Shown here one piece after another: positions 248 through 64,000 of a DNA stretch of 64,000 bases. A model generated the notes under the pieces. That model did not search any database. It was not told where the DNA came from and saw nothing but the letters and a program-made list of their open reading frames with translations. The position numbers and the translations under genes were made by a program. The DNA comes from Protoeuglena noctilucae (taxonomy: Eukaryota), in assembly GCA_958009085.1 (NCBI GenBank), contig OY253684.1, forward strand, positions 372,001-436,000, read 5' to 3'. Position 1 is the stretch's first letter, and each line of letters starts with the position of its first letter.

Positions 248-3200
248 TGGAAGTGTTGCTGCGAGCCGCTGAGAACGCCGGCAGGATCGCCGTGGCGACG
301 CCGGCGGGCTCATGGAGGTATCTCGACATCCTAAGGTGCGAACATAGTCACATGCACGTCCTTCTGGGGGCTGATATTCAACTTGGTGGGCACGGCAGCG
401 AGCTCATGTGTGCGTTTTAAGTGATTTCCGCAGGAGCGCCGCGGCTTTGCTTCCAAAACTCCCTCGCGCCGACGACGAGTGGCCGCTCCTGGACCCTGAC
501 GCCGGAGGGTCGCCGTGGGCGTGGCTGGGGAAGGCGTTTGGGGCGCAGGAAAAGACTGGGTCGGGGCGGCTGCTATCTGGTGAGAATTTGGCCAGTACCT
601 GTGCCGACGCGACTTCGTTAACAGTCAATAAACGCGTGGCCATCGTCGATGCGCGCCATCGACCGACCCCGCATGCAGACCGCGACCGCCGCGACCTGCT
701 AAACTGGCAGATGCCAGAGCACCACTGCCTGTCCCGGGGCCCTGGGTGCAGCTGTGGGGTCCTCTGCACGTGGGGCGAGAGGCCCTTGGTCGTGGGGCCG
801 CGCGTGGCGTGCCTGATCAACCCAGGTGCGACCGGCCACGCCACCATCGCGCTTGCCCCTACTCTGCAGTCTCTGTACTACTAATACCTGTACTACTAGT
901 CCCTACGCTGCCCAGTTATCGCTCGTGCTACGACCTTTGCGTTTCTCTCGCAGGCCCGGAGCACGTTGCCGCCATGTGGGCCACCTTTGGCCGCGGGTGC
1001 ACGTTCGTGCCCCTCTCGCGCTCGCACTCCTTCCCCGCCATCGAGCGAACCCTCACCGACACACAGGCAGCGGCACTCGTCGGTGAGACGCGTGGCTACA
1101 CGATACCGATACCGATCCTATCCCTCACCACCCTGTGTACCACTGTACCTGAGTCACCCGACCCACCCCACCCCACCGCATATCAACCCCACAGTCGCCT
1201 CACCCCACCTCGTTTCACTTGCATCTCATGCGGACCCACTCCACCTCATCTCACCCACCCCACCTCACCCCCCGCACAGTCGACGAGGCCCACGCCTCCT
1301 CATCTCACCCCCACCACACTCCACCTCATCTCAACCCCCACCTCCCCGCACAGTGGACGAGGCCCACGCCTCCTCCCGCCTCGAGAGCCTCATCTGCGAC
1401 CTGGGCCACGAATTCATCGTCGTCCCTCGCCCGGCCCCTTGCGACACCGACACTCTGGCAAACGCTGAGGGTAAGACCCTCGAGGGCAGCACCCGGTCAG
1501 GGCGAGGTGCAGCTGAGGGATCGAGAAGTGGGCGGGAGTGGCCGGGTGTGAGGGCGGAGGAGGTGGGGGAGGTGGAGAGGCTGCAGTCGTGGGCGGGGCA
1601 GGTGCTGCGGCCTCTTCTGCGCAACGACCTTGGGGCGATGCTGCTGACGAGCAGCGGGGCGGGGGGTGAGTGCATGGGTGGTGGCGGTGAATGTGTGAAG
1701 TACCAATAAGGGTGTCAATGGGGGTGTCATCCGTCGTGCCTTGTCACGCATTGTACATGCCCATATCTATGTCTCATTTCTGACCAGACATAAACAGTCA
1801 CATCACGTTTTCCTCTGTCCGCGCTGTGCCCCCCAGGTCGCCCCCGCGGTGTCCTCCACACCCACGCCTCCCTCACCGCTCAGTGCGCCTCTCTTCGCAA
1901 TGCATGGGCCCTGAGTCCCTCAGACCGTGTGCTGCACGCCCTGCCCTTGCACCACGCGTTGGGGTCCGTGACGGCCATGCTCAGTGTGCACGTGGCAGGG
2001 GGGGCCGTGGAGTTCCTCAGGTGACCTGCTGTGCTGTGGTCATGGCGATGGCATCTATAGACGTATGCGAACCGTCTGTGTGGTAAATAATGAATTTGAT
2101 CGTTGCTTGGCTTACTTACTGTGGTGACTCGCTTCATCACGTTACGCAGCATGCGATAATGACCACATCAACCCCCCGCAGCGACCAAGGCCGTTTCTCC
2201 GCCACTGCCGCCCTGGATCGCCTGGCCACGCAAGCACCCGCCCCCCCGTCCGCCACCGCAACGCTCAGAGCCCCGCCTGTCTCACCACCCGACACCCGCA
2301 CCGCCATCTCAGCACTGGTGGGCGTACCGGTCATGTTCGACCGACTGGTAACAGCATGGGAAGAGATGGAGGGGGCGAGCAAGGACGCAGCCAAACGTGC
2401 TTTGGCCTCGCTGCGCCTGGCGAGGTGCGGGGGCGGCCCCTGCGGACCCCGAGTGCGAGAGGCGTGGTTTCATGCAGCTGGGTCGCAGTTGCAGGAGTTC
2501 TATGGGGCCAAGGCTGCAGGGCCTGTGCTTTTTGCGCAACATGTGGCGGGCAGAGACGCAGCCACTGCTGGCGGCGAGGGGGATGCAAAGGCTGGGATGG
2601 CTGGGGTGACTGGGATGGGTGGGCTCACAGGGATGGTCCCGCTTCCTGGGGTGAGCGTGCGGCTGGCGACGGCGGCGGAGCTGCGGGGAGCGAGGGCGGC
2701 GACGGTGGTGGATGTGGATGGGGAAGGGGCGGGGGTGGCAGAGGAGAGGGGTGTGGGGGAGACGGGTGGAGAGAAAGCGGGGGTGGTTAAGGGAAGTGCG
2801 GATGGGGAGGGTGTGGCGAGGGAGATGGGGCGTGCGGTGGGGGGTGCGAGTGCGGTGGGTGGGGCAAGCGAGGGTGTGGGCGAGGGTGCGGGAGAGGAGG
2901 GGGAGGTGCTGGTGTGGGGTCCTGGGGTGTTCCGTGGTTACTGGGACGACACTGAATCGACGAGGGCAGCGATGGTGGAGATGGGGGGGCGGGTGTGGCT
3001 GAGGACGGGGGATGTGGGGGTGCGCGTGGGTGGGGAGGGGGGAGATGAGGTGAGTGTATGGGTGTGGTGGGTGGGGAGGGGTTGACGAGGTGGGGTGGGG
3101 TGTGTTGGGTGTGTGGACGAGATGGTCTCTGTGCATTTGTTGTCACTAGCAGTACGTAATGATGCTTTCGATACTTACTGAGTTGCTCTCCCATATCTCT

Positions 3201-4059
3201 TTCCTGCAGTCGCAATATGCGGTGTTGGGGCGTGAGGGCCTGGACGTGGTTGTGAGGGGAGGGGAGCGGGTGGTGGGGGCGGAGGTGGAGGCAGCGCTGG
3301 GGGCACTGCCGGGCGTGAGGGACGCGGCGGTGGTGGGGGAGGCACATGAGGTGAGGGGTGCAGTGATTGTGGGGGGACAAGAGGTGGAGAGGTGCAAGGG
3401 TGGCACCCAGTCGCACCACGCATCCAGTCGCTGCATCATCCATACATCACCTCTCGCCATGGTAGTAGCTCTACAGTTGATACCGACTCCCATCTCCCAT
3501 CTCACTCACTAACGTTTCATACATCACCCCCCGACCCCAGACCCTGGGCCAGTCCCTGGTGGCCGTCCTGGCCATGCGCCCCGGCCACCCGGTTCTGACG
3601 ACAGCCCAAGTGCAAGAATTGCTGCGTGCCAGCGCCGATCTGCCCAGCCACGCCATCCCTGATCGAGTGGTCACCGTGGACCGAGTCCCACGCACCGCCA
3701 TTGGGAAGGCGAGGGTGGGGGGGTACTGGGGGTTTCATTTCATGAGACGATGACATGCGCACGTCTGTTCCATGAGCTCTCTGCTTGCTTACATCTGGTG
3801 TCATGACCATTCTGCTGTATACATGGATGCATGGATTGGTCACAGTAACCATGTGCGTGGTTGTATGTCACAAGTAGTATTGCGTTGGCATTTGTGTCAT
3901 GTGTTTCGTGTTTTTTACGTATGCTCATTTCATCTATGTCTAGCGCAGGTGGACAAGGCATCTCTCCTGGCGGAGGTGGATGAGTTTCTGGCGGTGGAAC
4001 AGGCGGCGGGGAAGGACGCCCGGGGAGGGGCGGGTCAGAAGGGGGCGCACACGGGGTGA
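248..4059 (+). CDS. AMP-binding acyl-CoA synthetase, malonate-CoA ligase (AAE13/ACSF3)-like, multi-exon, with divergent motifs
   Basis: Spliced peptides: MEVLLRAAENAGRIAV..., GPEHVAAMWATFGRGCTFVPLS, LLTSSGAGGRPRGVLHTHASLTAQ...DRVLHALPLHHALG, GVPVMFDRL, GEVLVWGPGVFRGYW, WLRTGDVG, GAEVEAAL, VPRTAIGK|VDK. Stop TGA at 4057-4059. Confidence 0.8.
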
Positions 4060-4743
4060 GGGGTTAAGGCGGGTTGCGACTAGTTGCATGGTGACATGGA
4101 TGGTTGCGATCATGTGATGAGTATGGTTGCACTAGGAGGGGCGGGTCAGAAGGGGGGGCACACGGGGTGAGGCGCATCAGCTCCACTGCTCGTCTCGGGC
4201 TCTTGATGCTGTCGTTTCATGGATGTTCCCACTGCAAATCGAAAATAAATAGGGCCGGTGCCTCCTCAACTCCCACCCTCGCGGTATGAGTAACCCCAAC
4301 ACAGCATCTGACATTCCCCGCAGCACGGCGGACTGCGAGGTGTGCCAGGGTGGGCCGTGCGCAGCGGCGGACAAGCCAGCCAAGTCCACGCACGCGACGG
4401 AGAGGTGGATGTGAGGGAAGGGAGAGATGGGGATGTGCAAGGACTGCTCTTCCTCCTTTGCAATGTAATACCAAGGATGGTGCTTGAGAGAGCGCCGCCT
4501 GCACCTGCGTCCGTTTCCTCGCCATTTTCGCGCCGCACTGCAGCCACCCGCGTCCATTCTCTGTTCGCTTCGCTTGCGGCGAGCTCCGTTTGCACACCTG
4601 CAAACACGTTCACGTTGCACCCACACCACGCCCTGCACTACACTGGCATGCTCACTACAAACTGCGTGGGCACCGCTATCAAAGCTCTGTCGGAATATAG
4701 CGCACCCGCTGCATTTAACACTTCGTGCAGTTGACAACCGCGC

Positions 4744-6693: not shown

Positions 6694-7381
6694 GAGCGAC
6701 TTCTCTAACCTGCCGGGGTCGAACAGCAGCCAATTCCCGAGGGAGAGAGCCCTGCCCATGGCCGACTGCCGGGGAGCAAGGCCCACACCTGGCTGCGCAT
6801 ATTGTGTCAGGCAGCCGGCGGCTTCCTCACCTGCGGATGGCGGACGTGCTCTTGCCGTCCGCCGGCGCGTCCTGTGCGGCGTCGTACATGGCTGCACGCC
6901 ACACCCGACGCCAGCCAGCCCTGGAAAGGGTCGTCAGTGTGTCCTCATGGCATCCAACAGCCACTTTTGCTTGCAACGCAAACTCTCATGCTTGTCATTT
7001 GACGAGCGCTTGCAGGAAAGTGACAGACTCGGGCGAGCGCCAGATGACACATCAGCCCTGGGGCCGCGCGCTCCCCCTCAATGCAGGCCGACCTCGGAGT
7101 GCCGTGGCCAGTTGCATACCCACATTTGCCTGGCACACGATCGTCCCCGTCACTCTTGCTGCGAAGACGCACTTTCGGCCATCGCTGCGTGCCACTCGCC
7201 CTTGCCGCTCTTGACGCTGATCAGAGCATTTCGTGCTTGACCTCAGCAGCGTCGCCGCGCCCCTGGCTTCGCACCAGGTGATCTCCAGGCTGCGCATGGC
7301 TTCTTTTCGCGCGCAGTTTCACGAGGCCGCGGCACGGCCGTCGACCCGCGCAATCCATCTTCGTGCATCCAGAACGCGAGA

Positions 7382-7812: not shown

Positions 7813-7906
7813 GCCCCGTAATGGCTGCGAGTTCCGCTTCGCTATCTGCCGCGACGCATGCATGATGTCACTTCCACTTTCAATCCACACGAACAGGCAA
7901 GAGCCC

Positions 7907-11727
<3,821 letters not shown>

Positions 11728-13073: not shown

Positions 13074-13130
13074 GCCTGAGCCAGACATCTGAGCCTTCCC
13101 AGGCTGGCAACGGATGGCACCCGAGTGCCG

Positions 13131-13135
13131 TGTAA
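13131..13135 (+). promoter_or_regulatory. Putative chlorophyte-type polyadenylation signal TGTAA (also at 19941-19945 and 49698-49702)
   Basis: TGTAA lies 60-250 nt downstream of the stop codons of three + strand genes. UGUAA is the known Chlamydomonas poly(A) signal. Confidence 0.4.
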
Positions 13136-14193: not shown

Positions 14194-17100
14194 ATGGACA
14201 GGGAGACGCTGTCCAAGACGGGCGGCCTTCCGCCGCTCCCGACATTCCGCGCGTCGTCCGACGCGACCCCGACGCGGCCCAACACGCAGCAACAGAGCGA
14301 CCTGAGCGCGACGGGCACTTCGGCGGTCGTCGCGCCCACGCCCAAGCTCGCGGCGTCCCAGGCCCGCCAGTCGCACCCGCCGCTGCCCTTCTTCGGCCAC
14401 TTCGACGTCACCACGCCCTGGGACTTCGACCACCCGGCCGTGGACACCTCCGCCTACTCTCCGCAGCTGGGCTACTCGCGCTTCATGCTCGCGTTCGTGC
14501 CGCTGAGCCACGAGGACCCGACAGCCGGCACCGACGGCCTCAAGCTCCGCCCCGGCCCCGCGGACGAGCGCCCGCCGGCCGCGGCGCTCCCGGACGGCGC
14601 TTTCTCCGCGAGCGGCGCGCTGGCCCGCAAGTTCTCGTCGCTGCGCGTCGGGGACTCGGTGGAAATCAAGGAGATTGCCGAGTGGGCCGCGCGGCTCTAC
14701 CCTCGCGGCGTGCACGACCTCAAGCCCCTGCTGATCCTGTGCCAGGGCCTGCTGCGCGACGTGCTGGCGGAGAAGTACTCTTTCTACTGTGAGGAGATCC
14801 TTTTGCTGCGGGACACGCTGCGGGATACACAGGCGCGGTGGAAGGCGGACATCGAGGAGATGCAGAGGACGATCGAGCAGCTGCAGCAGAGTCTGTCGGA
14901 GCAGGAGGTCCGCGTGGGGGTCGTGGAGAAGTTCAAGGGGGCCATGGCCAAGATGAAGGAGGCGCAGCAAGTGCAGGAGAAGGCGAGGGGCGGGGGGCGG
15001 GCGTGGATGGGGACAGACAGCTGGCCGGGACTGATGTTAGGATTTCATCATTTGCGGTGTATTACACGTGCTTGCCGGCAGGTTGCTCAGACCCATGTGG
15101 CTGGCTCACCTCAGTAGCAGCCCATGCCGCTCTCCACGTGGCAACGCTCATGATCGGTTTCGATATTGATCTGCCTCGTCCATGTCCGCAGAGCGAATAC
15201 GACAAGAAGGTCAAGGAGATGCTGGCGCAGAAGGAGCAGAACCGGCTGAAGCTGGAGAGCATGTACGCGCAGGCGGTGGCCGACTTGGAGAAGAACAACA
15301 AGACCATCGATCAGCTGCGGCAGCAGGTCGAGAAGATGACCGACGAGGCGGGGGTGAGGGGCTGGGCGGGGTGGGGTGGGGTGACGGTCGCGGGGCTTGG
15401 GGAGTGGGGCGGTGGCAGCTTGGGTAGGGCTGGGTGGGGTGCTTTGCTAAGCATACCACCTGTGCAGTGCATGCCACCTGTGCTACCCATACCATCTCCC
15501 CAATGCCACGCATGCCACCTCGCGTCGTCCCTCCGCAGGTGGCGGACACTCGCATGAAGTCCCCGGAGCACCAGTCTAAGACGGACCAGCGCAAGCTGCA
15601 GGCGGCGCAGGCGCTGATCAAGAGGCTGCAGGAGCACCTGCGCAACAAGGCGCGGTTCATGAACATGGCCTTCCACGACGCGCGGATCGAGCAGTCGCTG
15701 CAGGGGCTCATGGAGGGGACGGGTGAGGGGAGAAAGGGGGAGGGGTAGATGCAGGGGGTGAGGGAGGCAGAGTTCAGATGGCGGAGTGCAGCTGCAGGCG
15801 ACAAGGGGCCGGGAGCAGGTGCGATAGGCTTCCACACTGTCCTCTCCTCCTTCTCTCAGAGGACCCCCGGGAGATCGCCAAGTGGATGCAGCGCAACGGC
15901 GTCCTGGCGTCCGCGCAGCTGCTGAACCTCCTGCAGGCGGAGCAGGCCTACAGCACCGTCACCGAGCTGCCCAAGGACTTCGCGGCCGGGGTCATGTCGG
16001 AGGCGACCGTGTCGGCGGTGGCGAAGATGGTCGAATTCGCCGCCAATTCGGGGCCCGCGGGGCCGGACCTGGCGCGCGCGCTCGCGGAGATCATGCAGGA
16101 CATGAGCCCCTCGCGCGTGGCTGCGGTCATGGCCGACCTGCCCGCGGACGTCTTCGAGGAGGTCTCGGAGCACTTCGGTGAGGATATTAGTGTCACAAAC
16201 ATTAGTGGAAAAGCGCGCGGGAGGTTCCGGGAGGCTTAGGCTTGTGCCCTGGCCTCCCACGTCGGCCAACAATTTCTACCACATCATGCTCCTCCCAAGC
16301 CTCCCCGCGTACGTCAAACTGCCCCAACCAGTTCTCAGCATAATATAAAATCGCTTTCCTCGCCCCTCGTCCCCGCAGCGTTCGCATTGGAGGAGAACCG
16401 CAAGAGCAACAAGCGCCGCGTCAAGTTCTTTGGCGGGGAGGGCGAGGACGAGGAGGACGTCGAGGTGGACTTCAAGCCGGAGGGGCTGCGGAGGATGGTG
16501 ACGGAGGCTAGGGACATGAAGGTGCTGCTCAGGTGAGAGGCAGAGCTTCACACAGGGCGCGTGGCGGGAAGGGAGCAGCTGCACCGTATATGTGTGATCA
16601 TGCCGAGAATTGCATCACGGCGATCGCAATGCAATTCCAGATTACCAAGACGCTCACCAAGCGCTTTGATACAACACCACATATCATCCACATCGCAAGC
16701 GACGATGCGAACGGTCGCGTCGCCCCCTCGTCCCTCCGCCCCTCGTCCCCACCGACCCGCCCCGCGCCTCCCGCACCCCCCGCAGGTCGGCGACGCAAGC
16801 CTGGGAGGATCTGGAAGACGTGATGAACGACGAGGACATGGGACTGAAAGAGGGCGAGGAGTTGGACAGGGACGGCAACGCGCCTCGTGTCCAGAAGGCA
16901 TTGGCGACTGTCAACAAGGCGGCCAAGCGTGCTGCGGACAAGATGAACGAGCTCGATCCCAAGGTCGTCGCCGAGATGATTTCCGACATGGAGGGGGGCG
17001 TGGCGGACGCCATCATGGACAAGATGGACCCACAGGCGAGTATAACGGTGTATGTACTTGGGTGTTCGTACTAGGTCAAGAGGGTATCGGATGTTGTCAT

Positions 17101-19699
17101 GGACAAGATGGACCCACAGGCGAGTGGGTGTCGTGTTGGTGGTTGATTGGCTGGCTGGGAGTGTCTCATGTCGCTTGCTGTCGGCTCTCATCGCCTTCGT
17201 CTCACCAACCGCGCCAATGTTCACATCCACATCCCCTTTCGCAGTCGGCCGCCAAGGTCATCGAGGCCATCGTCTCACCCAAACACAACCCCAATATTCA
17301 TATTCATATCCATGCCCCCCCTTTGCAGTCGGCTGCCAAGGTCATCGAGGCCATCGCCGAGCGCGCCGTCGACACCCAGGCGTTGAAGCTCAAGCAGGGG
17401 AACGACGTCGACAAGCTGCTGGCGGCCATCGGTGAGAGGAAGAGGGGATGGGCGTGAGTTGTTCATGGGTCCTTTGTCGCCCTTTTTCTCACCATCAGCA
17501 TCGTCCCTCTCATTAACGACCCACCCACACGTCAACCACCCACCCACTCTCTCATCCACAACCCACCCACACTCCCCCGCCCCCTCACCACCCACCCACT
17601 CCCTTCCCCTCACCCCCCCGCAGAGCGCGTGGCCCGCAGCCGCACGCACCTGGAGCTGACCGACCGGCTGCGCACGGTGCAGAACCTGATGATGCACGTG
17701 CACGGCATCGGGTTCACGCTCCGGCAGCTGGTGGACGACTCGGGTGACCCAGAGGACATCGATTTAGAAACCGAGCCAGCACCCATTGACAGCCTCAAGC
17801 TGATGCTGCGGATGGACACCCTCAGCTCCAACGAGCCGCACGTGACGAGCATCGGGGAGGCGGGGGCTGCGGACCTGCTGAGGGAGCTGGACGGGGACAG
17901 GCCGGCGACGGGGGAGGCGCCCGCTGAGACGGAGGAGGAGCGCATTGCGGCGGCGATGGCGGCAGACGTGGGCGGGGACTCGATCCAGATGTCCGAGAGT
18001 GAGAGGGAGCTGGCGAGGAGGAACATGGAGAACCTGGCCGTGTGCCTGGTGAGCTGGGGGTGGTGGTGGCTGATGTTACAACATGCGATGTAGGTGGCAT
18101 GTATGGACGGTGGGTCGACCCACCCCTGCATGCGTCTACCTCCCCACCCTGCACTTCCCTCACTCACCCACCCGCACCCAACTCACCCCATGCACCCCTC
18201 CCCACCCCCCCAGGTCGCCACGCTGCAGCACGAGCAGCCCGTGGTGACGCGCGCCCACATGGCTGCGCCCGTGTTCATCAAACAGGACGCGAAGGAGTTC
18301 GTCTTCGGCACCCTGTCCACCTCCCAAGGCTCCAACACCATGTGCCCGCTCTGCAAGCGCGGATCCGAGACCAACGAGCTGACACCCCAGGCCATCCAGC
18401 ACATGATGCTGCTGGCCAAGGCGATCGGGGAGGGGGTGTCCGCGGTGGCCGAGGCCGAGCGCATCTCGGTCGAGAAGGTGGAGAGGGTGCTCGAGGAGGC
18501 GCACTCGGTGCGCGAGATCCCCATCCCGGGTGAGTCCTGAGTGGGGGCGGTGTGACTGGTGATGTGTGCAGTATTATAAGATTGACGATGCGTGATTGGT
18601 AATATATAATACATGGGTCGGGGAACCATTTGCCGTTCCACAATTGTGTATCCGTTGCCTCTCTCCCCGCAGACGACAGGACCAGCAGGCATTGTTCAAA
18701 TACACTATCACTCAATTGCTTACCTGCATCATCGATATCTATAGTCATCTCTCATTCCCCGCAGACGACAAAGACTAGCAGGCGGTGTTCACATGGATCA
18801 CCACTCCATTGCTAACCACTCTCATCTCTTTCTTTCTCATCACCTGCAGACGACAAGGACCAGCAGGCGGTGTTCAAGGAGACGCTGCAGATCATCGCCC
18901 TCCGCATCACGCAGAAGATGCGCACGTCCGAGGTGCTCAGGAAGCAGCTCGCGGAGATCAAGTCCTACGCCAAGCCACCCAAGCAGGTGAGTTGTACAGG
19001 GTGCAGGAATGCATGTCTCAAGCCTCTTACAAATCGCGGTCTGTCAAGCTCACCCGCTGTCACTATGACATTCCCATCCGTGCCAACCCACTCACCCATT
19101 AACACCACCACCTCTCCCCACCCACCCATGCACTGCATCTCCCCACCCCCACCACCCTTACCTCCCTCGCCCCCCCAGGTCGTGCAAATCATCCTCTGCA
19201 CCTTTCTCCTCCTCGGCTACCCCGGCATCGACCGCTACCTCACCAAGGACCTCACCGTGCCCGTCGACACGCGGGCATTATGGGCCTTCCTCCGCAAGGG
19301 CATTTCGCTGGAGAAGCCCAGCCCCAAGTACCTGCCCCCATGCATGTCGCGGCTGGCCGAGGTGAGGTCGGGGTCAACGCTTGCGTGCTTGCATGCTTTA
19401 GATGGGAGTGATTGGGAAGGTAGTGCCATGCTGGGCTGGATAGGGTGGCGACAGAGCGCACGTTGAGAATCGTCGCGCTCGTCTCGCCGCTCATCACCAA
19501 CATGCCTACCATTCTCTGTCCCGCCCAGATCATCACCAAGATCCCCCTCCCCGACTTCGCCTACCGCTCCTCCATCCGCGCATTGGAGGGAATCTCCCAC
19601 ACGGAGGCCAAGCAGGGGTCCCACGCCACGGCCATGCTCCGCAAGTGGTGCCTGGCCATGATCAACCTCCACCGACTCATCCACGTCGAGAACATCTGA
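14194..19699 (+). CDS. Large multi-exon coiled-coil/helical-repeat protein with a C-terminal dynein-stalk microtubule-binding-like domain
   Basis: About 14 codon-biased exons with clean splice sites. Coiled coils (WKADIEEMQRTIEQLQQ, EYDKKVKEMLAQKEQ), MgtE-N/FliG-like helical repeats (MNELDPKVVAEMISDMEGGVADAIMDKMDPQ), a CPLC motif, and a C-terminus LAEIKSYAKPPKQV...SHATAMLRKWCLAM. Confidence 0.7.
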
Positions 19700-30413: not shown

Positions 30414-36302
<5,889 letters not shown>

Positions 36303-41986: not shown

Positions 41987-42000
41987 CGACATGAACGCAG

Positions 42001-46138: not shown

Positions 46139-49100
46139 ATGACGTCCAAGGATGGGGACCGCACTGTCAGCGGGGTGGAGGCGGAAACGTCGGGCCGCGA
46201 CTCCGGCGCAGGGGCGGAGGCCAAGTCGCGCAAGCGCCGCGAACGGAGCAGTATGCGGTGAGGCCAGGGCCGAGGCTGCGTATTTGGTGACTCATTCCTT
46301 TTCCATATGTCGACTCGCACTTCTGTACGTCGCGTGGTCCCCTGCCGCTGCCCGTGCGCGCTGGAGGGGCTTGCGAGCCGGCGGCCGCAGGGAGGAGCTC
46401 GCCAAGTTCGACCGCGGGCCCCGGGTGGACTTGAAGAGCATCAAGGACAAGAAAGTCAAGGCGAGTTTCCATCATCGACCCGCATTCCTGCACCCGCGCG
46501 GCGGGAGCGCGGCGCGACCGCGGGGACCCGGGCTGCCTCGCTCGCAGGGCCAGATGAAGTACCGCGAGCGGCTTTACAAGGAGGCGCGACACCAGGCGGC
46601 GAAAGTGGGACAATGGCTGCTTCCGGCGGAGGCGGGCGTCCTGGAGGCCGAGGGCATGGAGCGCACGTACCGCTTCAAGCAGGACGCGATCGTGGAGGCC
46701 GTGGAGGAGGGCGCCGCGCGCAAGGTCGTCGATCTCAAGGCAAGGATGCTTGTGACTGTATCAAGCGCTGCGAATCAGACGCGGGACGCGCTGGGCGCAG
46801 CGGCGGCCCTCGGGGTCCAGGGCTGCTTGGGTGAACGCTGGACCGTGTCGCTGTGTGGTCGTGACCGCAGCTGCCGGACCTGGGCCCGTACAACGTCGAC
46901 TTCACGCGGTCCGGTCGATTCGCGGCGCTCGCGGGCCGCAAGGGGCACCTGGCCCTGCTCGACTGGCAGCGCCCGCGGCTGTACTGCGAGGTGCAGGTCC
47001 GGGAAACGTGCCGCGACGTGACCTTCCTCCACAACGAGCAGTTCTTCGCGGTCGCGCAGAAGAAGTACGCTTACATCTACGACAAGCGCGGCCTCGAGGT
47101 CCATTGCCTGAAGGAGACGGTCGAACCCTACCGGTGCGGCGCGGTGGCGGGGGCTGGGAGCGGCCCTGCAGCCGCATACGCTTTGCGTGAAGCCGGGGCC
47201 GGCTTTTTTGTGTGCATGTAGATGTATTGCATGCGCGAAACCGCTCGTTGCGGCCCGCGGCGCGGACGTCAGGTGCAGGCGAGGACTTTCGCGTGTCGAG
47301 TAAACCTGCGGCTTGCCGTCCCCTGCTGCAGGCTGGATTTCCTCCCGCACCACTTTTTGCTCGTTTCTACGGGCGCGGCGGGCGTCCTGACGTACCAGGA
47401 CACGAGCACGGGTCAGATTGTCGCCCAGCACCGCACCCGCCTGGGCCCCTGCGATGTCCTGCGGCAGAACCCTCACAACGCCGTCATGTGCCTGGGCCAC
47501 TCGAACGGGACCGTCACCATGTGGACGCCCAATATGACGTCGCCCGTCGTCCGCATGCTCTGCCACAAGGTGCCTGCCAAGGGGGCTTCGTTGCAGGGCT
47601 GGGCTGCTTGTCCCATTGCACACGTTAAGATGGGTCGGCCAATGCACCCAGCCACTCTCCCATTCCACGTATCGCCCTCGTCTCACGTACCCCCTCACCC
47701 GCTCCGCCCCCACAGGGCCCCGTCCGCGCACTTGCCGTCAACTCCGGGGGTCACTACTTGGTCACTGCGGGCCTCGACTGCCAGGTCAAGGTCTGGGACG
47801 TGCGCACCTACCAGGAGGTCCACGCCTACTTCTCCTCTGCCCCCGCCGACAGCATCGACCTGTCGCAGCGGTGAGAGCGCGGTGGAAAGGGGGCGGGTAG
47901 GGTTGCGGTTGAAGAGGGTTGGGCTCTCGTTGCCTCTCTTTCATCAGCTGAGTGTGCCAATTAATGGGAGCAATACATTTTACGATACAAATAGCGCTAA
48001 GTAATGCACCACAAACAACACAAGACCCCTCCCCTGTCCCGCAGCAACCTGCTGGCGGTGGGCTGGGGCCGCCGGGTGCAGGTGTGGCGGGGGGCGCTGA
48101 CGGCCAAGCAGGATTCCCCCTACATGTCCCACCAGGTCGAAACCGGTTCGATCCGGGACCTGCGTTTCGTGCCCTATGAGGACGTGCTGGGGATTGGGCA
48201 CGCGGGCGGCTTCAGCACGATCCTCGTGCCGGGGGCGGGGGAGGCCAACAACGACTCGTGGGTGAGGGGTGTGGGGGTGGATGTGTTATGTGTGTTATGT
48301 ATGTTTTGTGTGTTACATATGCAGATGAGGCCAACTACGACTCGTGGGTGAGGGGCGTGGGGGTGGATGTGTTATGTGTGTAATGTGTGTTACATATTGA
48401 TGAGGCCAAGTACGACTCGCGGGTGACTTGTTAGATGCTGTTGCTCGTTGGTGTCTCTGACCCAACCACCACAGCCACCACCACCTGCCAATGCTCACTG
48501 CATGTGACGCAACCCCTCTCTCAGGTGGCGGACCCCTTCCAAGCCCCCAAGCAGCGCCGGGAGGCCGAGGTCCGCGCCCTGCTGGACAAGCTTCCTCCTT
48601 CCATGATCACGGTCGACCCTGACGCGGTGGGGAGGGTAATCAAGGCGCCGCTGGAGGTGCAGAAGGAGAGGGCCAGGGAGGCGAAAGAGGCGAACGAGGC
48701 CGCCGCGCAGAAGCAGAGGTGAGGGGTGGTGGGGGCTGATGGGTGATGGAGTGGGGTTCAGTTGTTGGGGTGGTGGGTGGGGTGGGTGGGGGTGGCCATG
48801 CAGAAGCAGAGGTGAGGGGTGAGGGGGGGTGATGGGTGGTGGTGTAAGGGGTGGTGGGTTGTGAGGGGTGGTGGCGATGGAAAGGTAGAGGTGGGGTGGG
48901 GTGCTAGTGTTATAGAGAAACGAGTCCAAGGAGGTCGCAGTTGCTCACATGTATCATGCTTGCTCACACGTACTAATCTCCATCACTGTCCACATCCCCA
49001 GGGACAAGAACGAGTCCAAGGACAAGATGAAGGGCAAGAACAAGCCCACGCGCAGGCACCGCAAGAAACAGGAGAACGTGATACGGGACAGGAACCAGGA

Positions 49101-49449
49101 GATCAGGTGAGGGGGAGATGGGTGCAATATGGTGGCAGATGGGGGGTGGTAGGGGGTGGTCATACGGAACAGGATGCACATTGCTCCAGTCATACAGATG
49201 CTTAGTACGACATCTCATCAGTCCCTCCCGTCGCATCACTCTCATCTCTTTCTCTCTTCCTCTTTTTTCAGAGAGAAGCTGCGCCTGGAGGGCAAAGCCA
49301 CGGGTCCCCGGGCCGAGGCGGCGGCCAAAGCAACGAAGGAGGCCGAGGCAAAGAGAGCCGAGAAGCGGACAAGGGTGGAGAGGGCGCTCGACGGGGTGCC
49401 CAAGCCGCTGCACGGCATCTTCCGAAACAGCCTGCAGAAGCTGGTGTGA
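46139..49449 (+). CDS. WDR46: WD40/BING4CT U3 snoRNP protein WDR46/UTP7
   Basis: [142 protein letters not shown]. Confidence 0.92.
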
Positions 49450-50169
49450 GGGAGGAGGGAGGGAGGGGGGTGTGAAGGGGTTCTTATGCAACAGCTTGCA
49501 GAAGCTGGTGTGAGAGATGGAGGGGGGTGGTTGATGAGCACGTGGCTGTTGCGCTGGAGTGTGGAGGGGGTGCGTTTGCGTGCCTGGGGTGGGGAGTTGA
49601 ACGGAGAAGTCGATTGAGCAGTGAATAAGCTAACCAATGGCTCATGTCTGGGTCGGTGCGAGGATTCGTGCTTCGGCAACGGCACGCCGCGAGTGTGTGT
49701 AACATAGCTACACCGAAGGTGTAGTGTACGTTTTTGGTTCAAATCCTGGCGGACACACGGCCGCCATCTGCATACTACAGAGCTGCGCGTTCGTCCGACG
49801 CCGTCTATGTCTTGGAAAGGGAAGGGGCGTGGGGCGAGCGACGAGTGCGGCACAGAAGTGACCATCGACATGCAGTGCGGCGGGGCAGGCATCGCTGAAA
49901 GGGAGCATGGGCATGAACATACGATCTAATGAACAGCTAACTATACACGATTGTCAAACATCACGTCGCGATCAGCTGGCATGGGACCACCCATGCAGGG
50001 TTGGCCACGGGCAGCAGCGAAGGCGTCACGATTGCACCCCACCCCCTCTGGCACCTCCAGCCTTGTCCCTATCACGACCAACCTCCACCACCACCACCAC
50101 CACCACCACCCCCACTCCACTTCACCAACCCCACCACCTCACCAACCCTTCACCCCCACCACCCCCGCC

Positions 50170-53100
50170 TCACTCCGACAGCTGCGTGAGCAGCGCCACC
50201 CCCCTCTTGATCCAGTGCGACGAGTGGTGCTCGCTGGGCAGCTTGACGTCCATGACAAAGTTGGTCGAGTGGCCAGTGGTCGACAGCACCCCGCGCCTCT
50301 CTGCGGTCTTGTACATGGGGGCCAGGTAGTGGGGTGCGTGCTTGAAGGCCGAGGTCTCCATCGGTTGCATCCAGATGACGGGCATGGGGGTGAACAGGGC
50401 CTGGGGGGTGGGGGAGGGTTGTGGGGTGGCATGAGGGGTGGGTGGGTGAGTGAGTGAGGGTATACGTGCGACGACAGGGGTGAGAGAGTGAGTCCGCTGT
50501 GTCACATCCACACGATTGATTGTCAACATATATGACAAGAAATGCATGCATTCACGAATGATTGACTCGCCTTGGGGTCCGACTCTGCCAGTACGTGTTT
50601 CTTCCAGTCCCACTTGCACCCCTCGATGAACAGTCCCCGGCAGTAGACGCCGTCGGTGGGGGGGTACTCGCACTGGCCGTCCTGGTCGCGGACCTCAAAG
50701 TCAAAGTCGATCTGAGGACAAGGGAGGGGTGGGGGGTGGCCATGAGGGTGGGGGTGTGAGGGGGGTGGGGGTGGTGTTGAGGGTAGCTGTGGGGGTGGCA
50801 GCGGGGGTGGTAGTGGGGTTGTCCTGGGGGTGGTGATATGGGTGGCAGGGAGAGCATCGATGGCAATCGTCGTCTTCCTATCATGTCTATTAACAGCCAC
50901 TCACCATGACCTGTTATATTCAGAGCATCACCGCCCATCCACCGACTCCCTCATCATGTCGATGGCGATCCGTGTCTTCCTAGCACAGCTATCGACAACC
51001 ACTTACCATGCCACGTCCATCAACCATCAACCATCCATGACCCCACTCCCATCTCCTCACCATGTCGATGGCGATCCTCGTCTTCCTGGCGTAGTTCTGC
51101 TTGGCCCCGGTGAGGAATGCCTGGGTGAAGAAGAACCCCGATATCCAGAACACCGTGGGCGGCCCCTCGTCGACCCACTTGCGGAAGAAGTCGCAGCGGT
51201 CGTTGAGCTCGCGGACATACGAGGCCAGGCCCTGGGGGGGAGGTGAGGTGGGGGTGGGGTGAAGGCGATGGGTGGGGTAGCGTTGGGGGTGGCGATGTGC
51301 GCATGCTGGGCAGTACGCCCCATAGTTACAATTACCATGTCACCCTTTACAATACATACCGTAATCACTGACAGTCAGTCAGTCGGCATCACTTGCCTTG
51401 AGGGAGGGGAAGGAGCTCCGCAGCCACATGTCTGGCACTTTGCCGTTGAACATTGCCCTCGCCACCTCCTCCAAGTCGCTGCTCATGATGGCCAAGCCCT
51501 TAACGGCCTTGCCCAGGTTGTGCAGGGAGGTGCGGATGACAGTAAGAAGAGCGTTGACGCGCTCCAGCTCTTGCACCAACACTGGGGGGTGAGGGAGGAG
51601 GGGTGGGGTGTTGGTGAGTTGGGTTTAAGGTTGGGTGGAAGAGAAGGTGAGCTGAGTGGGAGAGAGCGCATGGTAACTGTTCATCTCATCCCTCACCGGT
51701 GTTCATGGAGTTGTGGTAGTCCTGGGGGTACTTCATCGTCGCGTAGTCGATGTCGAAGTTGGCCGGCAGCCTCCCCAGTATATCCGCAGATACCCCCGCC
51801 ACCGCCTCCTCTAACGTCGCCGCCCCCGCCCCCGCGACCCGCGACTGGGTCAGTAGTAACGAATCGATCATCTCGTTCGTCTCCTTTAGGTCTTTAGATA
51901 TGTCCGCGTTGTCGTGCAGCCCGAACGCCTCGGGGGACGCCACCAGGGGCAGCGACTTGATGTGGGAGAGGTAATCCTCGTACTTGCCGTTGGGCTGTGT
52001 TTGGGAAAGGGATGGGGGAAATTGTGCTCATGTAGTAATAGGATCATGACAGATCGTGCTTGTGAAAGCTTGTCATGTTAAACACGCCTGTGATGACTCA
52101 ATGCGCGCAATCAACCCTGTCACCCCTCACCAGCGTGCAGCAGATACCCATCTCACCCCCCAACCCCATCCCCCACCCCCTCTCCTCACCAGCGTGCAGC
52201 AGACACCCACCTCTACCCCCACCCCAACCCCCTTTCTCCTCTCCCCTCACCAGCGTGCAGTAGATGCCCGAGGGCGACGTCTTGTACGCATCATCGAGTA
52301 TCCTGGGCGTGTAGTAGTCATCCAGGATGGTCATCAGAGTGGTGCGGTCGTGGCTGTCGGTGACCTTGCCGCCGTAGTTGCACTCCCCGCACGTGTACTT
52401 GAGAGTATCGTAGGGGATGTCGGGGTACTCGTCCAGGAACACCTGGGGGGGTGGGGGTGAGTGGGAGGGTGGGGGTAAGGGTGGCAGTGGGTGGGGGTGA
52501 GTGAGGGTGGGAGGGAAGCAGTGGGGATGGGGGTGGTTGGGGGGGTGGCAGTGGGGGTGGTAGTCGGGGTGGCAGCGAGGGTGGCAGGGGGGGTGGCAGT
52601 TGGGGTGGCAGTGGGGGTGGCAGTGAGGGTAACCTCGCCTGCAGCTGCCGCATAGTCACCTCACACACGCATGCACCCACCCATGTATACACACGCACCA
52701 CCCCATCCCCCCCACCCACCCCACATCCACTCTCACCTGCAGCTGCCGCACCGATGCCCTCAGACACCCGCAAACGCACCCCATCCACCACCACCCCATC
52801 TTCCACCCACACACCCACATGCACTCTCACCTGCAGCTGCCTCACGGATATCCTCAGGTCGTTCTCGTTGAACTCGTAGGGAATATTCCACCCGATGGGC
52901 CCGAACTTCTTCCTCTCATAAATGATGGAGTGGAAGAGCGCCAGTCCCCACAGCATCTTCCTGAACTCCTTGTCCTTCTTGCAGCCGTAGAAGAACTCCG
53001 GATCCGTGACGGGGTGCATCATGTAGGTGCGCAGCAGCCCCGCCGAAAGCCCCTTGGGCGCCTCGTTGGTGATCTTCACCCCGTTCTCCAGAATTGAGAT

Positions 53101-59100: not shown

Positions 59101-62100
59101 CAGGTCGTACACGAGTCGGCCCTCGGGGAACAGCTGCGTGATGGGCACGGGCGGGCCCCCCAGGTAGGGCTTGAGGTCGGCGGGCGGGTCGTTGACCAGC
59201 ATGTGCCGCAGGATGCCGTCGAAGGTGACCCTCCCCTTCTCGTCCGTGCACCCCCCCACGGACCAGACGAGAGCGAAGAGGAAGATGGACTGGATCCAGA
59301 CTTTCTGGATGTTGGCGTTGAGCTCGGCGATGCGGGCGGGGGTGGCGCGGAACTCGTCGAGCATCGCGTCGATGATGCGCATGCAGGAGCGGGCCAGGTT
59401 GATGGCGGACATGGGCACGGGCCGGCGCAGGATGCGCGTGGCGGCGCGGAGCGTGGGGGGCAGGAGCCAGTCGAACAGCGCGGTGAGCTCTTCGCGGTGG
59501 GCCTCGGTCACCGCGGGCGGCAACGTGTCCAACCAGGAGAGCATCACGGGGCGCCACCCGAGCAGCGACGCCTGCATGTAGACCATGCCGCAGCGGGAGA
59601 CGGTGGCGGGGGAGGCCTGACTCAGGTCGTCCACCTCGAAGATCATGTTCATTTGGGCGTTCATGGCGATCTGGTCGCCACTGGATAGACAGAGCTTCTT
59701 GTTGTCGTCGAGCACCGTGTTCATGTCCTCGATCCACACCGCGTCGACGGGGCCGTCCAGCACCACCCACTTCCGGTCGGGCGACTTGTCTTTCGCTGCC
59801 TTGCGGAAGTACACGGCCAGCACCCCGTCCGCCCAGTCCTTGCTCACGGGGTCCTCCGCGCCGTACAGGTGCCGCTGCGGCTGGGCCTTGGGGTTCATGA
59901 CGAAGCACTGCACCCGGTTCTCGCCCATCAGCCCCTGCGCTGCCAGGTCGCCCAACGCGTCCGCAAGCACACGGTACGACTCGGTTTTCATCCCGAACGA
60001 CTCCCCCACGACCATCAGCCCGTGTCGCACGATGATCATCTCGTACAGCTGGATGATCTTGGTAAAGAAGTCGGGGAGGGGCTGCAGGTTGCGCTTGATG
60101 GCATTGTCGCGCAAGGCGTCAAGCAGGGCGGAGTAGTCTGGGGGGGAAGGGCGTGGTAGGGGGTGGGAGTTGGAGTGAGTGTTGAGATGATTGGGAGGGT
60201 AGCAGTGGGGGTGGCAGTGAAGGTGGCAGCGGGGGTGGCAGCGGGGGTGGCAGTGGGGGTGGCAGTGGGGGTAACGAGACACCCATATGCTACCTACCGT
60301 GCCCATGCACATGTGACAACCCCACCCCACCCCCCCCCTCACCAATCTCTGGCAGCTCCACCCCCGGGAAGAGGTCCTTGATAATCCCCTTGAAGAGCGG
60401 CACGTCCTGATCGAGGAACTTGGGCAGGTTGACGTCCGACAGCGCGCGCAGCATGAGCACGTCCTCGCCCAGCGTGTCGCCGTACTTGCGCTTGAGGTTC
60501 GCCGCAGCTCGCAGCACCGAGATCACCGCCCTCATTCCGTAGTCGTAGTGGGATTGCGTGGACAGCTGCTCGGAGCACAGCTTGTAGGTCTGCACCAGCT
60601 TGCGTGCCATGGCGCGGGCGTCCAGGTAGCCGTACGAGTAGAGGAGGATCTCGGCGATCTGGGGGGGGGATACGAGAGGCTTAGTTACTAGGGATGAGAG
60701 TGGGGCGGTTACTGGAGTAGATGTACGAGTAGAGAGGGATCTCGGCGATCCGGGGGGTGGGGAGTGTGAGGGGGGATGAGGGTGGTGGTGGGTGAGCAGA
60801 GGGGTGGGGGCGGGGGGGGATGAGGGGTTGAGGGTGGGGAGGATGAAAGTTGGGGAGGCATCATGGCCACGCCATGCGATACTTAAGTACACTATACTAA
60901 TAATGACACCATACTTATGATGACAACATTAACTACACCCATGTAACAACTCACCATGGCGTAGTCGGGCACCATCATGGCCACGTCCCGGAACAGCGCC
61001 TTGAGGTTGTCGGGCAGCTCCGACCGCCCCGCATATCCCGGGTTCATGGTGATGAATGCATTGCAGGTCATGACCAATGGCAGGTCGACGCCATCCAGGT
61101 TGAAGGAGGGTGCCATGGCTGCCTTGGCGCGTTGGATGGTGAGCACCTGCTGCGCCACCACGGAGAGCACCTGGGGGGGAGGGGGGTGGGGGTGGGAGTG
61201 GGTGAGTGGAGGGTGGGGATGGGGATGGGTGGGAGGGCGTGGGGGTGGGAGTGGGGGTGCAAATGGGCGCTGAGACTGCTTGTTGGTAGGCACGCCCTTA
61301 CTTCTCGCGCCATCCAACGCAACCCATCCCAGCACTCTCTCACCTCCGGCTCGATGCGGTTGAACTCGTCGAAGCACGCCCACGCCCCCGAGCACCCCAG
61401 CCCCTTGAAGAACTTGGCCATGGCCTTGTAGTTGAGCGAATCGGTGCAGTTGGTCACCACGCACTTGATCGCCAGCGCCTTGCTCAGGTCCTTCACCGTC
61501 TCGGTCTTACCGGTCCCCGCAGGCCCTGCCGGGGCGCCCCCCAGGTTCATGTAGATGGCCCCGATCAGCGTGCGGTAGCACCGGTCCGTGAGGGGCGTGA
61601 TGACGAGGCGCGAGGAGTTGCCCAGGTACTCGTATCCGTAGAGCGTGACGGCGTTGATCATGCGAACCACTAGCGTGTCGGTCGGGGCGACTTTACTAGG
61701 GGGCCTCTCGTGGTGCTCCCAGTAGGAGCGCAGCTGGCTCTCCCAGTTAAAGTCGTCCAGTCGGTCGACCCCCTTCGACGCCATCTCGTCCACCACGTCG
61801 CGGGCGTGCACGTCGATCACGACCAGCGCCCCCACCGTCGCACGCTGCAGGGGCTTCAGCTGCCCACGCACCAGCTGCACGATCTTCCCCAGCTCCTCCG
61901 TGCACACACGGGAATACTCCTTCAGGCCCCGGGTGCCCCCAGCCTCAATGGCCTCGATGACCTGGGGTGGGGGGCGAGGGTGGGGCGGTGGGTGAGGGTG
62001 GTGGCAGTGGGGGTGGCATTGAGGGCGGCAGGGAGGGTAGCGTTGAGGGTGGCAGTGGGGGCGGGGGTGGCAGTGGGGATGACAGCAAGCGGACGAGGTG

Positions 62101-64000
62101 ATGGTGGGCGGGGCGGTGAGCGAGGGTGGGGGTACAGGTGAGGCGCAAGTCAGCCAGAACCCGACCACCCATACGGGGTGCTGACCACCGCACTACACAC
62201 TATATCCCACCATACATGCCCTACCACCCCTTGCCCCTCACCTCCTTGGTCCAGAACACCTGTCCGCAGTTGAGGCTAGTTGAGGCTAGAGACAAGACAA
62301 CAACCATACCACCGCTCCCTCACCTCCTTGGTCCACCTGGCTAGGTACAAGACAATAACCATAGTGGTACCACTCAATCCCCCCTCACCTCCTTGGTCCA
62401 GAACACCTGCCCGCAGTTGAGCACGAGCTGCCCCGGCCACTGCAGGATCCACGTGCTGCGTTCCTTGTTGGGGAAGTCCTCGATCGCGTCTCTCGCCATC
62501 TTGTGCACCGTCTGGTAGATGACCTCCTCACACTTGGTCAACCACGCCTCGACCGCCCCCACCTTACCGGGGCTCACGGGTTCAATCCACGGGATGCGCT
62601 CCTCCTCGACCGAAACCATCCCCGTGATGTCGCCGTTTGCGTGGAACTTGAACCGCGCGACCGCCTCGAATATCTTCTGCGTGAAGTCCTGTATCTTGAG
62701 GGGATCCTTGCACTCGGACAGAATCTCCAAAAGCTGGTCGTTGGAGAGGAAGTAGAAGCGCGGGAAGGCCATCTTCTTCGTCTCGAGAAACTCGTTGAGG
62801 CCCTTCTCGACAACGTCCAATAGCTCGTTGGCGTGGGTGAGGGAGTCGAGGAGTCCATCCATGTCGGCCACGTGCGTGAGCAGCGGGTCCTGCACGGTGC
62901 GGTCCATGACGCCCCGCCAGATTGCGTCCATGTCCCGGAAAGCCATCCCCTCCGTCGGGATCTGCCGCACGATCTCCTCGGACCCGAAGATCGGCTGCAG
63001 GTACATCCACCGGCCCTGGCACTTGAGCCACTCCTCCAGGATGGACTGCAGCCTTGTCAACAGCGACTCCCAGGGTCCGATCTCGCGCATGTGGGGCTTG
63101 GCGAAGGGAGACGTGCCCATGGCCTGGACCTTGATGATGTGGTCGTCCAGCAGCGCCTGGGCCTCGTCGACGGGGCCGCCCTTGAGGATGTACGTGCCGG
63201 TGCGGTCGTACTCGGCGAGCTCCAGTGACAGCCCCTCCCAGTCTCCCTTCATCTTGCCCAGCTGTTTCTCGATGGTAAACTCCCGCGACGCCCGCTCGGA
63301 GATCGCCACCAGGCGGCCCACGGGGTCAGGCACCTCGCACTCCTCGAGTTTCTTGATCAGCTGCCCCAGCCGCATCTCGTCCGGGCGGATCTCGATGCCC
63401 ACCGCCCCCACCATCTCCGCCCAGTGACGCGCCTTGAGGCCCTTGTTGCAGATGGCGTGGATGAGGGGCAGGTGCACGCGGAAGTTCTCGATCTTCTGCT
63501 TCGTCTCCAATGCCAGGTTGAGGGGGTCCTCCAGGAGCTGCAAAGAGGGTGGGGGTGGGGAGGGTGGTTGGTTGAGGGTGGGGGTAGCAGTGGGGGTGCC
63601 AGCAGCAACAGCACCGCACCACACAAGCACCCCTGCCTCCCTCGCTCCCTCGTCCGCAACCCCACCACCGCATCACTCACCACCACTGCGCCTCCACTCC
63701 TACCCACTCCTGTACCTCGCTCCCAACCCGTTACCACCCTTTCACCCCCTCCCCCCACTCACCCTCTCCACCCACCAACCCCCCTCGGCACCCACCCACT
63801 CGCACCCACCCACCCCAACCCCACTCACCCTCCCCCCCGCCGACCCCGAGAAGACCTTGGTGAGCTTGTCAATCTTCCGAGTGCACTCCAGCACCTCGTT
63901 CTCAATCTCCTCCGGATCCAGCGCCCCGAACGTGATCTCGTGGTTGTTCGTCCACTTGTTGTAAGATTCGAAGAACTGGTGGGAGGTGGTCCATAATATG
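50170..64000 (-). CDS. Axonemal dynein heavy chain, single-headed inner-arm type; N-terminus lies outside the window
   Basis: Linker [20 protein letters not shown]1 [20 protein letters not shown]2 [11 protein letters not shown]3 [11 protein letters not shown]4 [10 protein letters not shown], stalk/MTBD, AAA5 [14 protein letters not shown]6 SLGQGQG/LQNCHL, C-terminus [15 protein letters not shown]. Confidence 0.97.

Follow-up and report, generated by a model that had tools for sequence, protein, structure and literature searches.

Why should the edge of an exon recur, some tens of bases away, inside the intron next to it? The question is raised by 64,000 nt of contig OY253684.1 of Protoeuglena noctilucae (assembly GCA_958009085.1, positions 372,001 to 436,000). 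This whole stretch is called the window here, and positions are counted from its first letter. A preliminary description of the window reported 16 groups in which a short segment spanning a splice junction or a stop codon is repeated once or twice in the adjacent intron or untranslated region (UTR), and it proposed that duplication is anchored at exon edges. We call the inner copies echoes. All 16 groups were found where that description had placed them, and as an observation the echoes are confirmed. For their origin we lean somewhat towards ordinary short tandem duplication, combined with filters on which duplications survive and remain visible.

Repeated exon edges in the window

An ungapped scan for direct repeats (at least 18 matching bases, offsets of 15 to 600) returned 110 matches, 80 of which come from a 12-nt satellite. 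The other 30 are the 16 groups, sums of their spacings, a few low-complexity matches and one extra 20-nt match at 25488. Block-wise dinucleotide shuffles of the window gave no match to the same scan in six of six cases. Comparison of the window with itself by BLAST found 17 pairs, 15 being echoes and two belonging to an old duplication of an ankyrin/F-box gene. The echo pairs have offsets of about 59 to 177, where 102, 147 and 177 are sums of adjacent spacings or are shifted by gaps. Orientation is direct in all 17 pairs and inverted in none. Between adjacent copies the spacing stays within 59-111 nt, as first described; the repeat at 50857/50950 is present, but its spacing in register is 102 nt and not 93, the two anchors having been offset by 9 nt.

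The window has near-verbatim matches in marine metagenomes and metatranscriptomes. Metagenome and RNA contigs were compared with 20 kb of the window, containing nine echo groups, and the RNA joints are the best 15 of 51. Contigs of run X5, which is independent marine-metagenome DNA, span eight of these nine groups with no differences, no gaps and the same copy numbers; the copies at 34303 and 34507 lie between X5 contigs. An artefact of assembly or polishing might be suspected from the 200-N gap at 9252-9451, which marks a scaffolded draft. We give it next to no probability, given that the X5 contigs come from a different study and match eight of the nine groups, that the copies are diverged rather than identical, and that RNA contigs splice across echoes.

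Gene models were built with our own rough dynamic programme, which uses codon bias and splice sites and was run within strand domains set by hand. The models recover nine RNA-supported junctions and contain 106 introns, dividing the window into exons (29.4 kb), introns (21.6 kb) and other sequence (13 kb). The preliminary description had suggested aligning junctions against their own introns. Run on the 212 predicted junctions of the window, this search gave 15 clear echoes over background, each scoring 20 or more, where the same query reached no more than 16.5 in any other intron. Weak echoes, with scores of 12-16, number only two or three, and a candidate at 48919/49009 is among them.

Anatomy of the echo groups

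The groups lie in five genes: an unnamed gene at 0.7-4.4 kb, which is known from the gene model only; a gene for a conserved protein of unassigned function at 13.6-19.7 kb, which has a homologue, P0121; the DNA gyrase subunit A gene at 30.2-35.7 kb, recognised by domain and homologue matches; a gene for a BING4/UTP7-like protein at 46.0-49.5 kb, found by a profile match; and the axonemal dynein heavy chain gene at 50.2-64 kb, identified by its homologues. By boundary class there are eight donor sites, six acceptor sites, one stop codon and one case that is ambiguous between stop and donor. The end of the coding sequence and what follows it are thus copied in ten groups (eight donor, one stop, one ambiguous), and the acceptor with the start of the exon in six. 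The statement that the copies straddle a splice junction or a stop codon holds for 14 groups at predicted junctions and for group 49426 at its stop, which is not a proven splice site; group 4024 is the ambiguous one. Six groups have three copies and the rest have two. The share of exon in a unit is 11-36 nt and that of intron 44-83 nt. In 11 of the 16 groups the gapped similarity found by BLAST spans much or all of the unit, and Tandem Repeats Finder (TRF) reports two groups as plain tandem repeats, with periods of 85 and 59.

Four of the donor-side groups are on the plus strand. The real site at 17013-17041 recurs at 17097-17125 (spacing 84) in a GC-AG intron whose GC donor at 17036 is supported by homologue continuity: P0121 is gapless across 17036-17328. 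The core is identical at 29 of 29 positions and the spacer is unrelated. In gyrase A, the segment 34196-34233 recurs at 34298-34335 (spacing 102), and on E. coli GyrA the exons on either side of 34229-34591 are contiguous (matches at chain residues 574 and 585, with offsets that fit 575-577). In the BING4/UTP7-like gene there are three copies, the real one at 48241-48305 and echoes at 48327-48391 and 48402-48426 (spacings 86 and 75). Here the BING4CT profile runs from 1 to 48 up to position 48261 and resumes with 50-79 from 48525, across 48262-48524, and the X5 DNA contig is identical. The segment 48707-48745 recurs at 48800-48838 (spacing 93), aligning over 75 nt at 83%, with the junction at 48719 taken from the gene model.

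The other four donor-side groups are on the minus strand in the dynein gene, and each has three copies. The real segment 51056-51090 has echoes at 50949-50981, where GT is now AT, and at 50857-50879, where the splice site is lost. An RNA joint from 50711 to 51061, which skips 50712-51060, is present in three of three RNA runs, and the tblastn alignments end at 51058. The real segment 52246-52264 has echoes at 52185-52210 and 52125-52150 (spacings 61 and 59; TRF period 59, 2.4 copies). The X5 contig is identical here, and tblastn shows dynein homologues to be contiguous across 51995-52250, as they also are across 52443-52830. The latter interval ends at the real segment 52826-52853, which has echoes at 52732 and 52634 (GCGAG), with spacings of 94 and 98 and an alignment of 133 nt at 77%. 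RNA contig pieces start at 52828 (runs X9 and X11), which is also where the tblastn alignments end. The last group has its real copy at 62382-62421, with the junction at 62388 taken from the gene model only. Its near echo at 62317-62335 carries 14 nt of exon and its far echo at 62234-62274 carries 36 nt, so that the breakpoints differ.

Acceptor-side echoes lie before the real site. On the plus strand, an echo at 1270-1301 precedes the real 3' splice site and exon start at 1344-1375 (spacing 74; 81-nt alignment at 84%; junction 1353 from the gene model only). The intron of the 17013 group also has an acceptor-side echo, at 17241-17272, with the real copy at 17325-17356 (spacing 84; 58 nt at 86%) and the same continuity on P0121. 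Three copies at 18669-18699, 18761-18791 and 18846-18876, the last being real, are spaced by 92 and 85 (TRF period 85, 2.4 copies), and P0121 is gapless across 18530-18849. In gyrase A, the intron of the 34196 group contains an echo at 34507-34542, its AG now AA, of the real segment 34585-34620 (spacing 78), supported by the same GyrA continuity; a second acceptor-side echo at 35182-35216 copies 35279-35313 (spacing 97), and its junction at 35290 comes from the gene model with partial Pfam matches. On the minus strand, the real segment 60632-60666 has an echo at 60723-60757, with AG now GG (spacing 91), and the Pfam profile AAA_6 continues from position 171 to 172 across 60659-60954.

The stop-codon echo is on the plus strand. 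There, the frame end at 49426-49450 (…NSLQKLV, TGA) recurs at 49490-49514 in the 3'UTR, with a spacing of 64. The ambiguous group, also on the plus strand, has a real copy at 4024-4061, a coding end with an in-frame TGA inside GTGAGG, and an echo at 4135-4172 (spacing 111); the similarity is a 38-nt core only, and the gene model joins the group to a weak exon at 4324-4414. In its spacer (4062-4134), a GGTTGC(G/A) motif repeats about 30 nt apart when judged by eye, and this suggests nested small duplications inside echo units. Outside the original 16 there is one degenerate acceptor-side candidate on the plus strand, in which 14 exact bases of the exon at 49009-49022 recur at 48919-48932 (spacing 90); its score is 14, and none of the other 105 introns exceeds 10.5.

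Working copies, decoys and intron growth

Of the copies in a group, it is the one next to the exon that works; the inner ones drift as non-coding DNA. RNA or homology continuity backs the working outer copy at 10 of the 14 splice-junction groups: the outer site is used at 51061 and 52828 according to RNA, and it is required by homology at eight more groups. Assembled contigs lose rare transcript forms, so the RNA comparison would miss low-level use of echo sites. The junctions at 1353, 35290, 48719 and 62388 have a gene-model basis only.

The spacers were said to have diverged while the junction part stays recognisable, and the counts bear this out. The exon-derived part is identical at 346 of 372 positions (93%), and the intron-derived part at 700 of 1095 (64%), against about 55% for shuffled sequence. 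The 26 differences in the exon-derived part fall on codon positions 1, 2 and 3 in 10, 5 and 11 cases; 13 are non-synonymous and one, in an echo of the 18669 group, creates a TAG in the former reading frame. With differences over all codon positions, half of them non-synonymous and one a stop, the echoes are free of coding constraint. Synonymous changes in the real exon probably account for some of these differences. Among the three copies at 18849, echo and real exon differ by about 11% and echo and echo by about 21% in our own count, which fits one frozen and two free copies.

By eye, GTGAG or GCGAG is intact in 12 of the 15 donor-side echoes. The splice dinucleotide is lost in three donor echoes (GT) and in two acceptor echoes (AG). 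The intact sites, the scarcity of intermediate decay, and the 93% identity of the exon part beside a unit that is otherwise near random are what one would expect if echoes were kept for a function, either as extra U1 or U2AF sites that boost a weak outer site, or through gene conversion from the real exon. We consider this very improbable. The differences at all codon positions, the in-frame stop and the five lost splice dinucleotides speak against it, binding sites need no 20-36 nt of exon sequence, and the stop-codon echo has no obvious splicing role.

Echoes were also suggested to create decoy or alternative splice sites. The first half of this fits the 12 intact-looking donor echoes. The second half does not, because splicing at an echo donor would end in a frameshift or a stop in 10 of 12 cases, and the echoes are therefore decoys rather than alternative coding sites. 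Recursive splice sites were set aside, as the sequence before the AG|GT of an echo is exon-derived and G-rich, without a pyrimidine tract by eye. Our own splice-aware gene finder put false micro-exons on four echoes, at 50905-50910, 52737-52742, 62242-62259 and 48325-48347, and automated annotation of this genome may err likewise at echo sites.

That introns grow by duplication agrees with their lengths. The 13 echo-bearing introns have a median length of 293 nt against 156 nt in the other 93, and recognisable units make up about 1.9 kb of the 21.6 kb of intron in the window. Two introns have an echo at both ends, in one of them with a spacing of 84 at each end. A single event was rejected as the origin of these pairs, since no single rearrangement yields the layout; by our own arithmetic about 0.5 such introns are expected, and two are not beyond chance.

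Anchoring at coding boundaries

In a placement simulation, units of the observed sizes were put at random positions in the window, from which the echoes had been removed, and a unit was counted if it touched an intron and was not wholly exonic. Of these placements, 61% straddle a junction and 39% are wholly intronic. The probability that 16 of 16 groups straddle a junction is 3.6e-4 when intron-internal space is the alternative. It rises to 7e-3 with internal copies taken as half as detectable and falls to 1.5e-6 with other non-coding DNA included in the tolerated space. That all exon parts are at most 36 nt long has a probability of 4.5e-8 in the same simulation. The proposed anchoring at exon edges thus stands as a pattern, with every group including an edge beyond what random placement gives; as a statement about mechanism it is weakened by the 11 of 16 groups that resemble plain tandem duplication and by the fact that a filter can mimic anchoring.

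Shorter tandem arrays, with periods of 13-58, are intron-only in 24 of 31 cases, so that these introns are prone to local duplication in general. These short repeats sit inside introns, and the 59-111 nt boundary class therefore stands apart from them.

The 12-nt satellite, which reads CTGCCACCCCCA on the transcribed-sense strand, lies at 32555-32630, 33028-33378, 50727-50818, 52528-52630 and 60197-60248. It takes up parts of several introns in two genes on opposite strands, and it is always C-rich in the sense of transcription. The gyrase intron at 32890-33386 is nearly all satellite array.

A mutational hotspot where coding sequence begins or ends, which would make the anchoring mutational and not filtered, is a possible though not a probable account. 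Under it, the G-run block after donors and stops and the C-run block before acceptors would form a G-quadruplex, an R-loop or a head-to-tail hairpin; stalled replication or paired nicks would flank the block, and repair would duplicate it together with 11-36 nt of exon. The anchoring itself and the narrow range of exon parts favour such a hotspot. So does the polarity of the predicted introns, which on the coding strand have 42% G in their first 60 nt and 48% C in their last 60 nt. Minimum-energy folds pair the head of the intron with its tail, with a mean of 17.7 pairs and a mean z of -0.91 against dinucleotide shuffles, and z is below -2 in 22% of the 76 introns folded. Echo-bearing donor sides are richer in G (0.48 vs 0.38, P = 0.037), although this difference is weak and the acceptor side shows none (P = 0.22). 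G-rich sequence follows both stop-codon cases, and the junction at 62388 has been struck twice, with differing breakpoints. The 13 echo-bearing introns are also clustered, all falling within five of the 19 gene models (resampling P = 0.004, or 0.02 when confident introns alone are used).

Other observations count against a hotspot. G- and C-rich tracts elsewhere, at 2.6-3.3 kb and in the 12-nt satellites, carry short-period repeats only, without 59-111 nt units; a consistent microhomology or motif at the breakpoints was not seen by eye; and a filter accounts for the same pattern. As causes of the anchoring, hotspot and filter are inseparable with 64 kb. A broader proposal would have a dedicated mutational process at coding borders, tied to the G-run and C-run blocks, that duplicates 60-110 nt units again and again and is thereby a main driver of intron growth and a constant supply of decoy splice sites genome-wide. 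One form it could take is paired breakage at the borders of R-loops, of quadruplexes or of hairpins between the head and tail of an intron; we regard the proposal as unlikely.

The two most RNA-covered genes in the compared stretch, at 42.9-45.9 kb, are without echoes; contig depth is a poor measure of expression.

A proposed origin: tandem duplication with filters

The explanation that we favour, tandem duplication with filters, begins with units of 59-111 nt that have been duplicated directly and locally in the DNA and, in six groups, duplicated again to give three copies. Staggered breaks repaired by fill-in and end-joining, or else replication slippage, would produce the duplications, in introns with G-runs at the 5' end and C-runs at the 3' end. 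The outermost copy, still joined to the exon, stays the splice site or stop codon, and the duplication is thereby tolerated. The inner copy, left in the intron or the 3'UTR, becomes a drifting decoy, and the intron gains one unit per event.

We infer this break and repair route, and with it three filters. The first is that copies internal to exons would be purged by selection. The second is that copies lying wholly in repetitive intron sequence would fade fast, while an exon-derived part can still be compared with a copy that selection holds in place. The third is that about 44 nt of intron end or more would be needed in a unit to keep the native context beside the outer site, which may not function if the unit takes too little. 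Combined with a maximum of about 110 nt per unit, a 44-nt limit would hold the exon part within 11-36 nt and would account for the minimum of 59 nt. The intron part is indeed never below 44 nt, and the exon-part values spread evenly from 11 to the spacing minus 44, a post hoc observation. Direct orientation in 17 of 17 pairs and similarity through the unit in 11 of 16 groups support a tandem origin.

Several points weigh against tandem duplication with filters. The 44-nt rule was derived from the same data that it explains. Within the 64-kb window there are no duplications of 59-111 nt that lie wholly in intron, UTR or spacer, and since 39% of simulated placements are intronic, the filter must be strong. 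The intron part, at 64% near the 55% of shuffled sequence, has diverged far beyond twice the 7% of the exon part. Half-decayed echoes are scarce, with 15 junctions scoring at least 20 and two or three at 12-16, and the clustering in five of 19 gene models is a further difficulty. All intron counts and anchoring figures depend on rough gene models and on one 64-kb sample. Finally, in groups 4024, 17013, 34196 and 60632 the similarity is confined to a core of 29-38 nt at 91-100% identity, with unrelated spacer on both sides; the cores stop abruptly at spacer that is not especially repetitive, and tandem duplication with drift does not explain these four groups.

For at least these four, a copy-and-paste of the junction core is an alternative. 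Repair of a break 40-80 nt into the intron would insert sequence templated by the nearby exon edge, through a polymerase-theta-like activity or template switching, and the spacer would be original intron. The four groups have cores of fitting size that match at between 32 of 35 and 29 of 29 positions, and the z of their spacers is -1.3 to 0.9. Templated repair of the polymerase-theta kind commonly gives both orientations, however, and here there are direct copies only, with no inverted one in 17 pairs. By eye, no consistent microhomology was seen. The copy-and-paste process leaves unexplained why junction segments would be the sole template. It is also at odds with the similarity through the unit in 11 of the 16 groups, and the spacing is equally narrow in the four core-only groups and in the full tandem groups. 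Taken as the explanation of the echoes, it seems quite improbable to us. A process linked to splicing, which the preliminary description had allowed for, is unlikely because the 49426 echo sits on an in-frame stop codon; that group, and possibly 4024, straddles a stop codon where the 3'UTR begins.

The source organism and other features of the window

The window has a G+C content of 64%. Its largest gene is that of the axonemal dynein heavy chain, whose closest named relatives are in green algae, with 73-76% protein identity. About 250 nt downstream of one stop codon there is a TGTAA, which we take to be the green-algal polyadenylation signal. The source was treated as a marine green alga on account of these green-algal dynein relatives and the TGTAA after the stop codon.

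GC-AG introns appear to be frequent: GCGAG or GCAAG starts 13 of the 80 confident predicted introns, in models that permitted GC donors. The minus strand carries a pair of F-box and ankyrin-repeat genes at 25561-26785 and 28157-29389, old tandem paralogues with a DNA identity of 66-79%. The scaffold gap lies within a predicted minus-strand exon region.

Comparison with known systems

Introners of Micromonas and other algae are dispersed, near-identical introns with short target duplications. Like introners, echoes are an abundant and lineage-specific source of intron sequence in marine algae; unlike that dispersed family, each is copied locally from an exon edge of its own gene. An introner family was rejected, as self-BLAST found no dispersed repeats among the roughly 106 introns of the window. 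Introner-like small mobile elements that insert at exon edges could still be imagined, with the spacer as the element and the echo as a long target-site duplication. Consistent with them are the core-only spacers, which are unrelated to their surroundings and, by eye, less repetitive and more AT-rich in 4024 and 17013. We give such elements hardly any credence: no two spacers or introns are alike and no dispersed family appeared in the self-BLAST, terminal inverted repeats were not noticed, and target duplications of 19-65 nt are far outside the introner range of 3-8 nt.

Short tandem duplications are natural in plant genomes, and paired-nick experiments have been done in Arabidopsis. In other organisms, small tandem duplications through fill-in at staggered DNA breaks are established, according to the excerpts available from one article (PMC8355091). 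As in those excerpts, the echoes are direct, abutting and tens of bases long, lack obvious microhomology and belong to a common mutational class; unlike there, they are anchored to coding boundaries, which those excerpts do not describe. For the echoes too, such fill-in could plausibly be the route.

Intron birth by tandem duplication is reportedly treated by Gao and Lynch (2009, PNAS) and by Hellsten et al. (2011). In the available part of a further article, new introns arise when an exonic segment with AGGT is duplicated in tandem (PMC3443670). Going by that part, the likeness to the echoes is that a short tandem duplication within a gene turns exonic into intronic sequence, leaves the mRNA unchanged and makes copies of splice sites. 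The difference is that a new intron arises there between the copies, whereas the introns here pre-exist and only lengthen, and their ends are not copies of each other. Because the introns pre-exist, AGGT intron birth was rejected: the echoes lie inside existing introns, with the donor copy downstream and the acceptor copy upstream.

Relatives of the alga were looked for by a metagenome scan with a dynein exon. No close relative was found; the best of 80 loci is 75-79% identical in protein, and therefore no orthologous introns could be compared. A scan for local duplications over these 80 loci (645 kb, many of them intron-poor or cDNA-like) gave matches in 10, four of which are long coding repeat arrays. 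A clear junction echo was found in just one control locus, L003, from a related GC-rich alga with a dynein 76% identical. There, at 9157-9330, a copy of the 3' splice site with 23 nt of exon lies in the intron 137 nt upstream; at this position the dynein gene of the window has no intron. In another GC-rich dynein contig, L055, an exact 24-nt repeat at 30-170 flanks a C-rich, intron-like stretch ending in CAG, a layout closer to intron birth by duplication.

If the density of 13 echo-bearing introns in 106 were true genome-wide, there would be hundreds of duplicated donor and acceptor sites in their native context, allowing a direct test of how a spliceosome that handles short introns chooses between identical sites. 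The genome would also be a clear case of stepwise intron growth by local duplication and not by transposons. The echoes are worth following up genome-wide. In a literature search, for which subscription papers were mostly outside the scope, we found no account of junction echoes at such density in any genome, or genome-wide in any alga.

The nearest parallel known is given by human minisatellites with a first unit that crosses an exon-intron boundary; the excerpts available from one report describe them in F7 intron 7 (37 bp), IFI 6-16, CBS intron 13, LMNB2 (100 bp) and PDGF intron 4 (81 bp); in F7, LMNB2 and PDGF only the most upstream donor site is used, and identical pseudo-sites lie behind it (PMC1557585). 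As far as those excerpts go, the algal echoes resemble these minisatellites in being direct head-to-tail copies whose first unit is the end of an exon and the start of an intron, though four of the 16 groups are similar in their core only. The 100- and 81-bp units of LMNB2 and PDGF fall in the 59-111 nt range of the echoes. On the same reckoning, the human minisatellites are single loci with 5-25 copies and are polymorphic, whereas the echoes have two or three diverged copies and occur in about one in eight introns of the window. The echoes also differ in occurring at acceptors (six groups) and at a stop codon, and in an exon share of 11-36 nt against 4 nt in F7. The algal echoes thus belong to a known kind of event and not to a new category; what is unusual is their frequency and density.

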